From IMG/VR virus record IMGVR_UViG_2728369554_000020: a stretch of 20,232 nucleotides of DNA. One strand, written 5' to 3'. A program made the position numbers and the translations under genes. Below the pieces are notes generated by a model. The model ran no database searches. It was not told where the DNA came from and was given only the letters and a program-made list of their open reading frames with translations. Shown one piece after another: positions 6,736 to 12,733 of the stretch. Positions within the stretch are counted from its first letter, which is position 1; every line of letters starts with the position of its first letter. Source of the stretch: a virus (lineage: Duplodnaviria > Heunggongvirae > Uroviricota > Caudoviricetes).

Positions 6736-7008
6736 TTACCTCCAGATCCGTTGCTGGAATGTGCGGGACGGACGCGGTGGGCGTTCGGAGTAAGGAAGCC
6801 TGACGTAGATTATCCAGTGACGATAATCGAGGGTGAGGGCTTTCCTAAACTCATACCCGCGTCTGCGGTAGTTCTGAATCAGCCATTCGGCCTGTTCTTC
6901 AGTGCAGGGGTCATGCTGATACCAGTCATATTTGAATGTGTGAGAACGCCGCCCGTATCTGCTGGCAGGGGCGGCATCAGAATTGTTAATTTTCTTGTAA
7001 TGCACCAC
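6736..7008 (-). CDS. hypothetical phage protein (90 aa)
   Basis: GTG start at 7008 with GAGGA 7 nt upstream; stop TAA 1 nt before the DUF968 start (coupled). Confidence 0.45.
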   Translation of the reverse strand: MVHYKKINNSDAAPASRYGRRSHTFKYDWYQHDPCTEEQAEWLIQNYRRRGYEFRKALTLDYRHWIIYVRLPYSERPPRPSRTFQQRIWR

Positions 7009-7074
7009 TACTATCCTCGTAATGGTGCGACAGACGCCAGTTGTTCAGGCTGGCTTTAACTACAACATTATAAT

Positions 7075-7269
7075 CTAGTCTTTCTTAATGCTGAAGTGAC
7101 TGACCGAATCCGCATGCGATTCTTTGGTGATCAGAATAACATCGGATGGCAATGGCATTACGATAAACTCACCATTCTCAAGAACTATTACTTCATAATT
7201 ACCTGGTATAGAAAGCGCAGCAATTAATTCCTTATCGTTCATAACCAAAATCCCGTGAACTTTAAACAC
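7075..7269 (-). CDS. hypothetical small protein (64 aa; start uncertain)
   Basis: ORF with GTG at 7269 immediately after an AAGGGGAG motif, or ATG at 7242 with no RBS; no recognisable motif. Confidence 0.35.
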   Translation of the reverse strand: MFKVHGILVMNDKELIAALSIPGNYEVIVLENGEFIVMPLPSDVILITKESHADSVSHFSIKKD

Positions 7270-7400
7270 CTCCCCTTAAGGGGACCATCCTTATTCTCCC
7301 TGCGCGCCAATCAAGTAATGAGATTCTATTTCCCCCGTAATTAGCCTCAAGAACAACAAATCACAAAAACACAAAAAGCCTGTTTGATTAAAAATAATCG

Positions 7401-7427
7401 TAACAAAAAACCCGCCGAAGCGGGTTA
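7401..7427 (-). terminator. intrinsic terminator downstream of the hok-like gene
   Basis: Minus-strand hairpin AACCCGCTTCGGCGGGTT followed by TTTTTTGTTA. Confidence 0.5.
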
Positions 7428-7494
7428 AGTGCGGGTGCGTTGAGGATGCCTGACACATCAGAGGTGGCGAGGGATTTCTCCCCCGCCAGGTCTC

Positions 7495-7680
7495 TTACTC
7501 CTCAGATTCGTAAGCTGTGAAGACAGCGACCTCCGTCTGGCCGGTTCGGATTCGTACCTCGCAGAGGTCTTTCCTCGTTACCAGNNNNNNNNNNNNNNNN
7601 NNNNNNNNNNNNNNNNNNNNNNNNNNNNNNNNNNNNNNNNNNNNNNNNNNNGCGATTAACATCGCCTTTTGCTGCTTCAT
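7495..7680 (-). CDS. hok: Hok/Gef-family type I toxin, interrupted by a run of N
   Basis: N-terminal MKQQKAMLI and C-terminal LVTRKDLCEVRIRTGQTEVAVFTAYESEE flank the N run and match the Hok family as I recall it; ATG at 7680 with AAGGAG upstream. Confidence 0.6.
   Translation of the reverse strand: MKQQKAMLIXXXXXXXXXXXXXXXXXXXXXXXLVTRKDLCEVRIRTGQTEVAVFTAYESEE
7575..7651. other. run of 77 N (masked or unresolved sequence) inside the hok-like gene
   Basis: Literal n characters at 7575-7651. Confidence 1.
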
Positions 7681-8018
7681 AGCCTGCTTCTCCTTGCCTT
7701 TCGGCACGTAAGAGGCTAACCTACGTTTGTGTAGCATAGATTGGGCCTCAGATTAATGTTAAGCGTCTTGCCGGACGCGTAATGTTAACTGGGGCTTTTC
7801 TCTGTCTGCCTTACAGTGGCATGCCCGAGGCAGACAGCCTCAAGCACCCGCAACAATCTTACCGACACCGATAAGAAAACGCTATTTTTTATTGCCAGAA
7901 CCTTCTGCCCAGGCTAATGTATCCGCGTCAGAACGGCGCAATGCGCTCGCCTGAGATACGTTTACTTGTCATTGGTGGCAACAGATAACGGCAATTGTTG
8001 TTTCTGTTTGTTTCCTTC

Positions 8019-8052
8019 AAAAACCCCGGACCGTCAATCCGGGGTTTTTGTT
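8019..8052. terminator. bidirectional intrinsic terminator
   Basis: Hairpin CCCCGGA-ccgtcaa-TCCGGGG flanked by an A-run on one side and a T-run on the other; downstream of the 288-aa gene. Confidence 0.55.
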
Positions 8053-8134
8053 TGTTATCCCCAGCGGCAAATCGAATACACCACCAGCGCCACCGCCATT
8101 GCGATTCCTGCCGTTGTAAATGCCTCAGGCCAGG

Positions 8135-9001
8135 TCATCGTAAAACATCCTCCACACCAACCAGTCCGTTCTGCTTCAGATATTCCATCGCCTTATCAGG
8201 TAGATTGCTTGATTTATTGACGCTTTTTAACGAACTGGCTAATCGCTTAACCAACATTGTTAATTCGTTAACCTGTTTTCCGGATGCTTGTGGATTGTCA
8301 GTTTTACCAGAAGTGGCGGTACAGTCGGCGTTCCCACTCTTCTCCTCCTGCGACGGTTTTGCTGCAATCTGACTGGCATGTTTGTTAATGGTAACGATCA
8401 GCTCTTGCTCAGCCTCATCAAGACAATCACTGATACCTCGCCTGTCACCGTCAAAATCATCGAAATCGGCGCGAACCTTGGCAAACTTCAGGATTGCAGA
8501 CAACACCTCACCAGGAATTACCGGAGAGTTGGTTGACGTTTCCGAGATTTTCCGAAAATTATTGGTTGACGAATCCTTGTTTTCCCGAAAGCTTCCTGAC
8601 TGAAGCATGGCTTCGCGGCAATCGTTCCATCCTTCAGCATAATCACTATACGCAAGAGGCCAACCTCTTATGTATTCACGCGGCAACTTATCAGGCACTA
8701 CCAGCGCTGGCGATGCTGCATAAAGTGGTGTTATTTCTGCCCGAAAGTCACCTACTTTATGCAGTCGCACCCACCGTTTGGCTTCTGCTTTGTCAGAATA
8801 CATAGCGGTGAACGTATTATATTCATGGTCAATTTGCGTGAAGGTTGCCTTCCACGCCACCGGCTCAGCTTCCAGCGATGCCAGTGCAATTTTGAATAAC
8901 TCACCCTCTATCCGTGCCATCCCTGAATTGGGGTGACATTTCGTAATCGCTATTTTTAATTTGGCCTCTTCGATTAATTGTTCTTTGGTTAATTCAGCCA
9001 T
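8135..9001 (-). CDS. hypothetical protein (288 aa), uncharacterised
   Basis: Long ORF with ATG at 9001 and an in-frame stop just upstream; own upstream region of 131 bp with two hairpins; followed by the bidirectional terminator. No catalytic motif recognised. Confidence 0.6.
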   Translation of the reverse strand: MAELTKEQLIEEAKLKIAITKCHPNSGMARIEGELFKIALASLEAEPVAWKATFTQIDHEYNTFTAMYSDKAEAKRWVRLHKVGDFRAEITPLYAASPALVVPDKLPREYIRGWPLAYSDYAEGWNDCREAMLQSGSFRENKDSSTNNFRKISETSTNSPVIPGEVLSAILKFAKVRADFDDFDGDRRGISDCLDEAEQELIVTINKHASQIAAKPSQEEKSGNADCTATSGKTDNPQASGKQVNELTMLVKRLASSLKSVNKSSNLPDKAMEYLKQNGLVGVEDVLR

Positions 9002-9132
9002 TTTTCATTACCGCCCTTTCGGGCGGCCTCCTGATGTTTTGAGGGTGCAGAAATCCCTCCGGTTAAGGATTTAATAAAATTCACTTCTGATTTAAATTTT
9101 TCAGTGTTTTGTTGTCAGGTGGTTTATCGCCT

Positions 9133-9444
9133 TTATGCTTCAGCCTTATTTCTCAGCCATACACAAACAGGACCATCTTCAGTGTCATGAATGGAACCAA
9201 TGAACCAGCCTTCACCTTCCGGGCGCTCCGGTTTCCAGGAGGCAATATCGGGACCATCTGCGTCCAGATTAAAATCATCTTCATCCATAGTTCTGATGGT
9301 CCATTGAAGATTATTTTCCTCCATCCATGCGTTAAACTCTTCCGTTGAAATATGTTCTCTACCATCACAGAAATTTTCATATTCAGGATGCGTCCAGCAG
9401 CCATATGCATCACGTTCTACCGGCGTTTCTTTGATTTCGTTCAT
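9133..9444 (-). CDS. strongly acidic small protein (103 aa), uncharacterised
   Basis: ATG at 9444 with GGAG about 9 nt upstream; hand count 26 D/E versus 8 K/R, several Trp. Confidence 0.6.
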   Translation of the reverse strand: MNEIKETPVERDAYGCWTHPEYENFCDGREHISTEEFNAWMEENNLQWTIRTMDEDDFNLDADGPDIASWKPERPEGEGWFIGSIHDTEDGPVCVWLRNKAEA

Positions 9445-9457
9445 AACATTAACTCCA

Positions 9458-9640
9458 TTAAAATAATGAAAAACAAATTAACCACACCACTACAACCGAT
9501 GCTATTAACACCCTGATTGCAAACAGTGGACTGATATGTCGAAAAGGATTTTCCCAGATAATAAAAGCCGCTGCCAGAAATGCACTGATCAGGAATACAA
9601 TAACAAACAGCTCAATTTTGATTATCCAGAACATATTCAC
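9458..9640 (-). CDS. small hydrophobic membrane protein (about 60 aa)
   Basis: Two hydrophobic stretches; GTG at 9640 overlaps the upstream stop (TAGTG), alternative ATG at 9634. Confidence 0.4.
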   Translation of the reverse strand: MNMFWIIKIELFVIVFLISAFLAAAFIIWENPFRHISPLFAIRVLIASVVVVWLICFSLF

Positions 9641-9933
9641 TACATCGCCTTCTGTAAAATAACCGCATGCCCCAGCTTCTCCGCCAGTGCCAGTTCTGCC
9701 TTAGCACCTGCCGACCGCTGCCAGCCATTCAGCATATAAATCGCATCCACGCAACGTATCATCGCCATGCAGATATCCATGTACTGCAACTGAGTCAGGC
9801 CGTCCGGAAGTACTGCCGGATTTAAGACTGTGTGCCCCTCCCGTTTCAGTTCCTCTTCTGCCTTGTGGAACGCCTCACGGTTGAAATTTTTATACCCGGT
9901 CATAGGACCGGCGATATAAACCCTCACCCTCAC
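9640..9933 (-). CDS. nucleoside 2-deoxyribosyltransferase-like (DUF4406-like) protein
   Basis: GTG start at 9933 with AGGAGG 7 nt upstream; N-terminal VYIAGPMTG motif typical of that fold. Confidence 0.6.
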   Translation of the reverse strand: MRVRVYIAGPMTGYKNFNREAFHKAEEELKREGHTVLNPAVLPDGLTQLQYMDICMAMIRCVDAIYMLNGWQRSAGAKAELALAEKLGHAVILQKAM

Positions 9934-10322
9934 TCCATCACCTCCTGAAAATTACCCCGATAGAACGCCAGTACACGTTGCATTGATTCGCTGTTACGGC
10001 ATTCCCGACAAATTATGTTCATGTCTCTGTCGTAGCGACGGATTTCACCATCAGGTAACTTCCGGACCAGTGCCGGGTCAGCTTTCTTCGGAGTTTTACA
10101 CCACGCCTGATACGCCTGTTCTGATACAAAAACACCGTATTTACCGGATATGTACAAATCACCACAAGCAACCACATCCACAAGACAACGTCTGACCGTA
10201 TGCCAACCCGCCCCCGTTGCCCTCTCCAGTTGCGACATCGTCATGCGTTTGTTCCTGTGTACCAGCCCGATAATTCGTGCCTTCAGTTCTTCCCGCTGTT
10301 CAGGTGTAAAAACGCTTGCCAT
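9930..10322 (-). CDS. hypothetical phage protein (130 aa), possible HTH
   Basis: ATG at 10322 with AGGAGG upstream; segment MSQLERATGAGWHTVRRCL looks HTH-like. Confidence 0.55.
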   Translation of the reverse strand: MASVFTPEQREELKARIIGLVHRNKRMTMSQLERATGAGWHTVRRCLVDVVACGDLYISGKYGVFVSEQAYQAWCKTPKKADPALVRKLPDGEIRRYDRDMNIICRECRNSESMQRVLAFYRGNFQEVME

Positions 10323-10336
10323 GAGTCCTCCTGAAA

Positions 10337-11083
10337 TTACTTCACAACCCTTAAATGACTGACATTTGAACGCCAGCTCTCCCAGTTAAAATTCACCCAG
10401 CGACCACCGTTCATGGTCATGCGGTCCATCACGCGCTCACCAAGCAGCGTATTCATTGCCGTATGGTTCAGGTTCGTCAGCATCCCGACGCTGTGCATCG
10501 AGGCTGTTCTGCGATCGACTATCTGGTTCAGTGTGACCTGTTCGTTACGCGTATCCCGCTGCATACCAATTTCATCCAGGACAAGCAGGTCAACTTCACA
10601 CAACCCCTGCAAAAATTTTTCGCCCGAGTTTTTGTTGTCGTAGTTGCCGTGTAACGCCAGCATCACATCCGCCACCGTCACCACAATCACGCTGCGACCT
10701 TTCGCCAGAAGATGGTTGCCAATGGCTGCTGCCAGATGATTCTTTCCGGTACCCGGCTTACCGCTGAACACGAAATTTGTGCATCCGGTCATCATTTCTT
10801 CCGCGATGGATTTTGCCTGGCTCAGCGCGTGGCGTTGGCCATCGTTCTTCACCTGGTAATTCGCAAACGAACACTTCTGGTGCAACAGTTGGATACCGGA
10901 ACGCTTCATAATTTTCTCCACCCGGATCTGGCGATTCTGGCGGTTAATTTCCTCACTACGCTTTCGCCCTTCTGCAAGCTGCCACTCTCGCCACTCGTCC
11001 ACTGTCCGGTACGGCGCGGTTACATGCTGCGGGGCCAGCTTACGGATGCGTTCAAGAACACCACCTGCCGCAATATTTTTCAT
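10337..11083 (-). CDS. DnaC-like helicase loader (AAA+ ATPase)
   Basis: 248 aa; Walker A GKPGTGKNHLAAA and Walker B LLVLDEIG; follows the initiator gene. Confidence 0.85.
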   Translation of the reverse strand: MKNIAAGGVLERIRKLAPQHVTAPYRTVDEWREWQLAEGRKRSEEINRQNRQIRVEKIMKRSGIQLLHQKCSFANYQVKNDGQRHALSQAKSIAEEMMTGCTNFVFSGKPGTGKNHLAAAIGNHLLAKGRSVIVVTVADVMLALHGNYDNKNSGEKFLQGLCEVDLLVLDEIGMQRDTRNEQVTLNQIVDRRTASMHSVGMLTNLNHTAMNTLLGERVMDRMTMNGGRWVNFNWESWRSNVSHLRVVK

Positions 11084-11089
11084 AACCCG

Positions 11090-12199
11090 TTACCCCCTGA
11101 ATCCCGGCGGAATTTCGGTGTCCGGTTCAGAAATGTGATTCACACAACGCTGGTTGTTCGTGCCGCTTACCGGGAGCAACCAGGGGTTTTCAAAATTCCG
11201 GTCCGGTCCAAAAAACGTCGTCGCTCGCTGAACAAATTCCGTTCCCGCTTTCCCGGTAGCAGCCAGGTATCTTGTGTAACGCCTCACACCATCCAGCATG
11301 GCCTCTGGTGGCACCCCCTCGCGCAATCTGGCCTTCCAGGCACTGAATGCGGATTTCTTCGGGTTTGCCCCGGCACGCAACGGGTATTCCCGCCAGACCT
11401 GTTCGAACACATCCGGATAATCCACTCGTCCCACAGGCCGCCCGGTGTTTTCCGGGACTACCCGATCGGCTTCCCGCTGAATGGCGGAATCGGCTTCAGG
11501 CTGCTGCAGTTGGTGTGATTGCTCCGACCCTGCGGTCATCGCCTGCTGCACAGCGCCCGAATCGGCTTTCAGCGCATACGCCGAATCGGCTTCCGGTGTC
11601 GTGCCTGCTGGCTGACCAGAATTTACGGTCTGAACATCCCCTGCCTGGTTCATGGTGTTTTTTTCGCCATGAACCATAGTGTTTTTGTCCTGTTCCTGTT
11701 CTTTCTCCTGCTCCTGTTCTTGGCTTCGAAGCCCCTTAAAAGCCCCTTCGAAGCCCCTTACCGAATTTCGGCTATTATTCCGCCTCACATCCAGATGGAA
11801 ATCCGTTTTATATCTGTCGTAAAACGCTGACAGAAAAGCGTTTTCAGGTAATGATGCATACTCATTCCTGACACCTGCACAACGGTTATCGCCGGGCTTC
11901 AACGTTTCCCCAACCTGCCAGGCTGCCATTTCATGGACCCAGACCATCTCTGCATCATGGTCATAGCTACAAAAACCAGCTTCAACAGCCCTTTTAAGCC
12001 CCTTTGAAGCCCCTTCCAGACCAAGCCCGGTTTCATGAGCAAGGTATAAAACTGGCAGGTAATACAAACCCAGCATATTTGCGTGAGGGGATGTCATCAG
12101 GTAAAAAGCAACAACTTGCGCTTCTGCACCCGCCTTTCTAAGTTCTCTCCCCGTTTCTCCCAGCCAGAATCGCGGAGAAACTTTTGCGTAATCACGCAT
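11090..12199 (-). CDS. replication initiator / replisome organiser (lambda O analogue, YdaU-like)
   Basis: ATG at 12199 preceded by GAGGT; the track start at 12310 has no RBS. Central acidic Q/E-rich linker and repeated EADSA segments; gene contains iteron-like DNA repeats. Confidence 0.7.
   Translation of the reverse strand: MRDYAKVSPRFWLGETGRELRKAGAEAQVVAFYLMTSPHANMLGLYYLPVLYLAHETGLGLEGASKGLKRAVEAGFCSYDHDAEMVWVHEMAAWQVGETLKPGDNRCAGVRNEYASLPENAFLSAFYDRYKTDFHLDVRRNNSRNSVRGFEGAFKGLRSQEQEQEKEQEQDKNTMVHGEKNTMNQAGDVQTVNSGQPAGTTPEADSAYALKADSGAVQQAMTAGSEQSHQLQQPEADSAIQREADRVVPENTGRPVGRVDYPDVFEQVWREYPLRAGANPKKSAFSAWKARLREGVPPEAMLDGVRRYTRYLAATGKAGTEFVQRATTFFGPDRNFENPWLLPVSGTNNQRCVNHISEPDTEIPPGFRG
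11727..11759. repeat. three tandem 11-bp iteron-like repeats (cgAAGCCCCTT / aaAAGCCCCTT / cgAAGCCCCTT)
   Basis: Core AAGCCCCTT at 11729, 11740 and 11751. Confidence 0.8.
11987..12015. repeat. second cluster of the same 11-bp period repeat (AGCCCTTTT / AAGCCCCTT / AAGCCCCTT)
   Basis: Copies at about 11987, 11996 and 12007, roughly 250 bp from the first cluster, inside the same gene. Confidence 0.75.
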
Positions 12200-12277
12200 G
12201 GCTACCTCATCTGGTGCCGAACCTTCCTCCGGATATAATCTGTGGTTCCCAATCGACAGAACCAGAGGAGGTTCGAC

Positions 12278-12733
12278 ATGTATTTTTTGAAAAGCCTTTA
12301 TCAGGCTCATGTATTAAATGTTGCAGCAACAAACCGCTGGTGTAACAGCCCCGAAATGCTCCCGGATTACAGAGCCTGGCTGCGCGCCGAAACATACCTT
12401 CGTCTCGACATATTGATTAGCGAACTTCAAAAAGAGACTGCATCCATTCATAACCTTCAGGGTATCGACGCTGTTCGCATTCTGGTATCGCGCCATAGTG
12501 CTCTCTCAATAATTGAAGTGCGTCATCTCTCTTTTTCTGAACTGATTTTCTTGCTTCAACCAGCTCTGGAATCAGCGAATATCCCACAGGAAGTGATCCA
12601 ATACCCACCTCATGTTGACGAGCAGTTACAAGATGTGCCATACAACCAGCGTGCTGGATTGACTCCCTGCTCAGAGGCTGAATGGGATCACTCTCTGCTG
12701 AAGAAATACCAAGATTTGTATAATCCTCAATAA
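12278..12733 (+). CDS. alternative antisense ORF (151 aa) with strong RBS
   Basis: ATG at 12278 preceded by GGAGG (12266-12270) with 7-nt spacer; overlaps the minus-strand ORF for 317 nt. Hand-counted GC by codon position is about 63/32/40%. Confidence 0.3.
   Translation: MYFLKSLYQAHVLNVAATNRWCNSPEMLPDYRAWLRAETYLRLDILISELQKETASIHNLQGIDAVRILVSRHSALSIIEVRHLSFSELIFLLQPALESANIPQEVIQYPPHVDEQLQDVPYNQRAGLTPCSEAEWDHSLLKKYQDLYNPQ

Follow-up and report, generated by a model that had tools for sequence, protein, structure and literature searches.

A strongly acidic early protein of an Escherichia coli lambdoid prophage belongs to a large, uncharacterized family of proteobacterial phages and conjugative plasmids and may inhibit a host factor

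What a small and very acidic protein might do among the early genes of a lambdoid prophage is the question raised by positions 9133 to 9444 of the IMG/VR virus record IMGVR_UViG_2728369554_000020 (Caudoviricetes), a stretch of 20,232 nucleotides that is referred to below as the window. The coding sequence (CDS; 9133..9444, minus strand) opens with an ATG start codon and specifies 103 amino acids. A preliminary description, made from the nucleotide sequence, had reported 26 Asp/Glu against 8 Lys/Arg together with several Trp and Phe residues, and had put the protein forward as a candidate DNA mimic or anti-defense factor following the logic of Ocr and ArdA. Recounting returned exactly the same charged residues, along with six Trp, four Phe, two Tyr, and three Cys, and the calculated isoelectric point (pI) of the protein is 4.17.

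The CDS was supported by the list of open reading frames (ORFs), its composition, a match to PHROG 1372, the pattern of nucleotide substitution, and its annotation as a CDS in E. coli NS-NP030. Its product is identical to RefSeq WP_061336537.1, named "hypothetical protein." A Shine-Dalgarno-like GGAG (9453..9456, minus strand) lies 8 nt 5′ of the ATG, the start position matches the N-termini of homologues (alignment A1), and both elements are conserved, the start as well as the Shine-Dalgarno site. Across 623 pairs drawn from 37 distinct E. coli alleles, the median ratio of nonsynonymous to synonymous substitution rates (dN/dS) was 0.11, a sign of strong purifying selection and thus of a reading frame that is translated and constrained. 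The gene is therefore real and strongly conserved. A chance or decaying ORF without function, for which absent annotation was the only point in favor, can be dismissed with near certainty given this ratio, the conserved start and Shine-Dalgarno site, a confident structure prediction, and the 1,088 homologous clusters described below.

At −0.175 per residue, the charge of the protein is an outlier in the window, where the second most acidic gene product reaches −0.076. From 1,048 mechanically called ORFs of at least 80 amino acids in the fetched loci, most of which had been picked because they carry the acidic family, 10 had a charge of −0.17 per residue or lower, and all 10 were family members. 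Among 148 diverse domains of the family, the median net charge was −15 and the median pI 4.26, with a pI below 5 in 97%, and 11 alignment columns were Asp or Glu in at least about 60% of sequences. Judged from these alignments, the family as a whole conserves its acidity, which is no accident of the copy in the window.

Residues 1 to 102 aligned to positions 55 to 158 of the 194-position profile of PHROG 1372 (E value, 3.5e−53); this group bears no functional annotation, so membership is silent on function. No family in Pfam (E value of ≤0.1) or NCBIfam was matched by the 103-amino-acid protein, and PADLOC models returned no families at an E value of ≤0.1; the lack of a match in all three indicates no enzyme family. 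Homology to a characterized non-mimic family, the result that the preliminary description had singled out as telling against mimicry, was likewise absent from Pfam, NCBIfam, PADLOC, and PDB sequence and fold searches. Sequence and profile searches of the PDB yielded chance matches only, between the WTHPEYE motif and Strep-tag II (WSHPQFEK) in tagged constructs. The conserved G-x-W-T/S-H-P-x-F/Y-E sequence (residues 15 to 20; 9385-9402) resembles this tag, probably by coincidence, and could cross-react with Strep-Tactin reagents in experiments.

A search of 5.8 billion proteins identified 124 homologues with E values of ≤1e−3, and an exhaustive profile search identified 1,088 representative clusters at 50% identity with the same threshold, 583 of them at ≤1e−10. 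The family occurs in phages and conjugative plasmids of beta- and gammaproteobacteria. Phage carriers include lambdoid phages, the N15-like PY54, and the P1-like D6, as well as phages infecting Burkholderia, Vibrio, Pseudomonas, Erwinia, Klebsiella, and Acinetobacter, while the genomes that carry it come from Enterobacterales, Pseudomonas, Marinobacter, Massilia, Duganella, and Herbaspirillum. It was present in 887 of 5,426 complete E. coli genomes (16%) and in 2,026 plasmid records, of which 1,755 were conjugative and 1,496 were from Klebsiella. This is a real, large, and uncharacterized family and, apparently, a structurally new one.

Approximately 25 of the 103 positions are near-invariant (75 to 99% across 147 representatives sharing ≤50% identity). 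These are R11, D12, G15, W17, H19, P20, W40, W70, P72, P75, G77, G79, W80, F81, S84, I85, H86, D87, T88, E89, D90, G91, P92, W96, and R98. Together they form the motif set RDxxGxWTHP ... WxPxxPxGxGWFxxSIHDTEDGPVCVWxR. The first motif, seen in the alignment A1, falls within residues 9 to 20 of the window copy (V-E-R-D-A-Y-G-C-W-T-H-P; 9385..9420, minus strand), where R11, G15, H19, and P20 are kept in at least 90% of representatives and the predicted local distance difference test (pLDDT) score is 86 to 93 despite an absence of regular secondary structure. The second motif coincides with the C-terminal core (residues 70 to 98; 9151..9237, minus strand), defined by conservation and the AlphaFold model, in which strands 80 to 88 and 91 to 99 are predicted to form a beta-hairpin around a D-T-E-D-G-P turn. 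Partly overlapping this core is an acidic linker (residues 53 to 79; 9208..9288, minus strand) with 10 Asp/Glu in 27 residues, where alignments A1 and A6 contain insertions. Its length and sequence differ between subfamilies while its acidity is kept (acid fraction per column, 0.3 to 0.9), and its pLDDT is lower, at about 79. Overall, AlphaFold predicted a single small alpha/beta domain (pLDDT, 88; predicted template modeling score, 0.79), and a structural search with this model found no solved relative.

The sequences of Ocr and ArdA drift while their charge pattern persists, leaving them only loosely conserved. The strictness of the motifs found here is unlike this, and suggests a specific site in the domain, which would be an interface for binding or a pocket for a ligand.

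The window corresponds to a lambdoid (Rac/Qin-type) prophage of E. coli, and the 5.4 kb in which the gene lies (7000-12400) match the cattle strains R1 and NS-NP030 at 100% identity. The acidic gene shares its strand with the replication initiator and DnaC-like genes on one side and with RusA and Q on the other, in keeping with the early location given in the preliminary description; lying between the replication genes and Q, it is part of the nin-type, delayed-early section of the rightward operon. A promoter or terminator of its own, which would mark a moron, was searched for, and none was convincing.

Neighborhoods were surveyed for 333 family genes at 268 distinct loci from viral contigs, genomes, phages, and plasmids. 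No single neighbor was conserved among these loci, which argues for a target in the host over a co-encoded partner. The genome position of the gene varies and it is often missing from closely related phages, as is typical of accessory functions, and we class the gene as an early, accessory module of mobile elements and not as a core function. In 16 distinct lambdoid loci, the gene for antiterminator N lies immediately upstream, so that in the leftward early operon N is followed directly by the family gene, and an ea10/DUF2528 homologue occurs further along in four distinct loci. In lambda, the interval after N carries sieB, orf28, and ral (gene table, PMC10695390). A Ser/Thr metallophosphatase gene lies immediately downstream in 18 distinct loci, including that of phage D6, and methyltransferases, ASCH, HD phosphohydrolase, and reverse transcriptase were occasional neighbors. 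On one viral contig (L171, 2572-3570), a homologue of the anti-CBASS sponge Acb2 (Pfam Acb2_Tad1_hairpin, 5.7e−18; PDB 8h2j/8ixz, E value of about 1e−22) is encoded immediately upstream of a 192-amino-acid fusion form of the family.

The gene order in Klebsiella IncFII(K) plasmids is traX, finO, PIN, a hypothetical gene, DUF2726, the family gene, a PLD nuclease gene, and repA, with the start of the family gene overlapping the DUF2726 stop codon in about 1,500 Klebsiella records, so that the two are translationally coupled; the encoded homologue, WP_004152383.1, shares about 37% identity with the window protein (L091, 11351-12961, pKPC-DD01665; also L094 and L095). The fold of DUF2726 is that of a restriction endonuclease (PMC3424549, PMC3710099). 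Pantoea F-type plasmids carry the family gene between traW and traU, and in pYR7 of Yersinia ruckeri it overlaps the stop codon of an HNH endonuclease gene.

Free-standing copies dominate the family (189 of the 268 proteins collected), and the remaining 79 (about 30%) are longer by 50 residues or more, at the N-terminus in 43 and at the C-terminus in 36. PHROG 1372 was also matched by all 60 of the fusion proteins tested. In such proteins the acidic domain occurs as a terminal module connected through coiled-coil linkers to many unrelated modules, and this architecture, read from sequence, makes it a mobile module. The partners are many and mostly unknown. The commonest, present in 17 proteins, is a predicted all-alpha module of about 95 amino acids with the invariants ERxRQ…HDD…WPW…WKP…LVKAGALILAEIERLDR (P0173, P0265, P0240, P0161, and others; alignment A3); it had no Pfam or PDB match and, as an uncharacterized phage domain itself, gave no functional lead. 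Lar_restr_allev was fused to the acidic domain in three proteins or clusters (P0145, P0237, and P0231) and an Rv2179c-like 3′-5′ exonuclease in two proteins, one of them RefSeq WP_313135628.1. One fusion each was found with a Tad2-like module (80 bits; C-terminal in P0153), KTSC, DHH/DHHA1, and a winged helix.

Taken together, these features lead us to favor, tentatively and at somewhat less than even odds, an accessory inhibitor that binds a nucleic-acid-handling host factor or immune protein in the service of counter-defense or host takeover. The family-wide acidity, the small size, and the absence of both an enzyme-family match and a fixed neighbor point this way, as does the association, by fusion, adjacency, or genomic slot, with Lar, Tad2-like proteins, Acb2, and the post-N interval. 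Under this reading, the window copy would be a free-standing version of a mobile, compact alpha/beta domain that provides an accessory early function in phages and conjugative plasmids, most likely through stoichiometric binding rather than catalysis. Its conserved negative surface (net charge of about −15 to −18, concentrated in helix 34 to 43 and linker 53 to 79) could occupy a positively charged nucleic-acid-binding surface belonging to a conserved protein of the host or of a competitor, and the invariant Trp/His/Arg/Asp cluster of RDxxGxWTHP and SIHDTEDGP may supply specificity. A defense or DNA-processing factor would thereby be neutralized shortly after early-operon expression begins. 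Protein binding, electrostatic mimicry, and the counter-defense or host-takeover outcome are the steps that we infer.

Several observations weigh against this inhibitor. Acidity is common in small phage proteins, which makes composition by itself weak evidence, and the near-invariant His19, Ser84, His86, Asp87, Thr88, and Glu89 might just as well belong to a site for a ligand or metal. Several subfamilies (P0105, P0111, P0113, and P0118) have a two-helix membrane anchor at the N-terminus, an uncommon feature in a soluble DNA mimic. A single metagenomic contig underlies each of the Tad2-like and DHH fusions, and the public names of family proteins are all "hypothetical" or "Prophage protein." A search of one literature library with the PHROG number, the motif, accession numbers, and phage names found no paper on the family. 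Finally, plasmid copies lie within or behind the tra operon, outside the leading region. The tra operon of F plasmids enters the recipient last, and anti-restriction genes sit in the leading region, making this location a poor fit to anti-restriction on entry.

How far the acidity implies mimicry of B-form DNA, with blocking of type I restriction-modification enzymes (or of BREX or systems like it) in the manner of Ocr and ArdA, was weighed against these same data. The charge density of −0.175 per residue is in the range of ArdA, and, like ArdA and Ocr (T7 gp0.3), the protein is small, very acidic, early, and borne on mobile elements, with its acidity kept throughout the family. The fusions to Lar, a restriction-alleviation protein, and the N-to-ea10 interval, which is the place of ral in lambda, also agree with an anti-restriction role. 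But the protein has neither a sequence match, in Pfam and PDB searches, nor a fold match to Ocr or ArdA, and whereas Ocr is a helical, elongated, DNA-shaped dimer, the predicted model is alpha/beta with a beta-hairpin core. The much stricter motif conservation, the membrane-anchored variants, and the placement of plasmid homologues between finO and repA or traW and traU, rather than in the leading region as for ArdA, also argue against classical anti-restriction, and we regard this reading as improbable. The likeness to Ral of lambda and Lar of Rac, seen in the post-N slot of the 16 lambdoid loci and the three Lar-fused clusters, is qualified by the lack of a Lar_restr_allev match in the acidic domain, Lar being found solely as a distinct module joined to it. 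Neither Ral nor Lar is strongly acidic, and both modulate methylation; the fusion indicates an association and not the same activity. The preliminary proposal is thus plausible and supported in part. The family-wide acidity, the accessory early character, the Lar and Tad2-like fusions, the post-N slot, and the Acb2 neighbor speak for it; against it, no sequence or fold relation to Ocr, ArdA, or any solved mimic was detected, about 25 positions are near-invariant, and the plasmid sites are in tra operons. A role in DNA metabolism with no part in defense, as an accessory or adaptor docking on a replication or recombination protein (for example, single-stranded DNA-binding protein, a recombinase, or a helicase), seems to us unlikely. 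It would suit the replication genes nearby in the window, the RecT/Erf, RdgC, exonuclease, and clamp genes found near the family gene in PY54, mEp213, and Vibrio phage R20L, the use of the domain as a terminal module on coiled-coil linkers, as expected of an adaptor, and the presence of the gene in tra operons, which fits DNA processing. Against it, variable position and frequent absence from close relatives form an accessory pattern, and no replication or recombination gene was a consistent neighbor in the 268 loci.

The plasmid loci raise a further explanation, in which the protein is an immunity-like regulator or inhibitor of nucleases or phosphoesterases of mobile elements, its acidic domain serving as a pseudo-substrate to restrain a nuclease that is fused to it or encoded next to it. 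The overlap with DUF2726 followed by the PLD-family nuclease gene in IncFII(K) plasmids, the HNH overlap in pYR7, the fusions to Rv2179c-like exonuclease and DHH/DHHA1, and the metallophosphatase gene directly following the family gene in 18 loci are all in its favor. Acidic nuclease inhibitors (barstar, colicin immunity proteins, lambda Gam, and T7 gp5.9) are similarly small and acidic, although homology to any of these is absent. Yet the many Klebsiella records represent, in essence, repeated sampling of a single conserved plasmid backbone, most copies are free-standing, and no consistent nuclease partner emerged from the survey, the coupling being absent from most loci. The adjacency or coupling to a nuclease gene that marks nuclease-immunity pairs is seen in IncFII(K) plasmids and pYR7 and not in the window, where the neighbors are a DUF4406 gene upstream and a DUF551-type gene downstream. 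Such a regulator is a poor prospect. Poorer still is a small-molecule or metal binder, whether a sponge or a small enzyme, with the invariant R11, D12, H19, S84, H86, D87, T88, E89, D90, and R98 as its ligand site, which we consider very unlikely. For a domain of 100 amino acids, the polar residues are conserved to a very high degree, the domain is fused to or encoded beside signal-sequestering or nucleotide-processing modules (Tad2-like, Acb2, and DHH/DHHA1), and the DUF4406 neighbor in the window is nucleoside-deoxyribosyltransferase-like. The sponges Acb2, Tad1, and Tad2 are of similar size and occupy similar accessory early positions. The acidic protein, by contrast, lacks an Acb2_Tad1_hairpin or Tad2-like match and any similarity to an enzyme or sponge fold, and its net charge of −15 to −18 would disfavor nucleotide signals and repel nucleotide-type ligands unless metal bridged them. 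A fixed His/Cys metal site is also unlikely, because H86 is replaced by Tyr or Phe and C94 by Trp or Ala in 20 to 30% of representatives.

A more specific form of the favored inhibitor can be outlined, though it is rather doubtful that all of its parts hold jointly. The family would be a new-fold inhibitor used both from the early operons of temperate phages and from the transfer operons of F-type plasmids, including Klebsiella resistance plasmids. Its single target would be a conserved proteobacterial protein of DNA handling or immunity, such as a nuclease or a nucleoid or restriction component, and frequent fusions with Lar, Tad2-like, exonuclease, and other modules would make the acidic domain a block of polyvalent counter-defense proteins. 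Small acidic early inhibitors of host proteins are already known, and if the explanation holds, the family is an uncharacterized and apparently structurally new example. As a counter-defense or host-takeover inhibitor it would be widespread, given its presence in 16% of complete E. coli genomes, about 2,000 plasmid records, and more than 1,000 clusters, with Klebsiella resistance plasmids and enterohemorrhagic E. coli prophages among its carriers. Identification of the target would provide a tool or marker for predicting the success of phages and plasmids against bacterial immunity, and would explain a recurrent module of multidomain phage accessory proteins; were the protein only a DNA-metabolism adaptor, its interest would be routine.

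Within the window, the minus-strand gene order begins with YdaT-family and regulator genes, followed by the replication initiator (11090-12310), the DnaC-like loader (10337-11083), and a DUF977/Ren-like gene (9930-10322). Next comes the DUF4406 gene (9640-9933, minus strand; Pfam, 2e−37), related to nucleoside 2-deoxyribosyltransferases (PHROG 355) and possibly a nucleotide-modifying accessory gene. Between it and the acidic gene is an unannotated 60-amino-acid ORF (9458-9640, minus strand) with a GTG start and two hydrophobic helices, which stops 13 nt before the ATG of the acidic gene. This membrane ORF was considered as a partner because membrane-anchored fusions of the acidic domain exist in Achromobacter and Pseudomonas; it was rejected, as only 10 of 80 close loci have it and other phages carry unrelated genes at the upstream position.

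Downstream of the acidic gene, the order continues with a 288-amino-acid modular protein, hok/sok, DUF968, RusA, Q, and the lysis genes. The modular ORF (8135-9001, minus strand; PHROG modules 660/5117, 14306, and 924) is intact, and RefSeq annotates merely a 93-nt "DUF551 partial pseudogene" at this place. Modular genes of this DUF551 type are the usual downstream neighbor, common only among close E. coli relatives, and the middle module of the window copy (KFAKVRADFDDFDGDRRGISDCLDEAEQELIV) occurs fused to the acidic domain in P0161. The hok/sok type I toxin-antitoxin system (7495-7849, minus strand) was recognized by Pfam HOK_GEF (1.7e−14) and Rfam sok (116 bits), with the hok reading frame partly masked by a run of 67 N (7585-7651). 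At 2037-2107 on the minus strand, Rfam identified a tRNA (41 bits) and RefSeq places a tRNA-Gly at the matching position, whereas ARAGORN reports no tRNA in the window.
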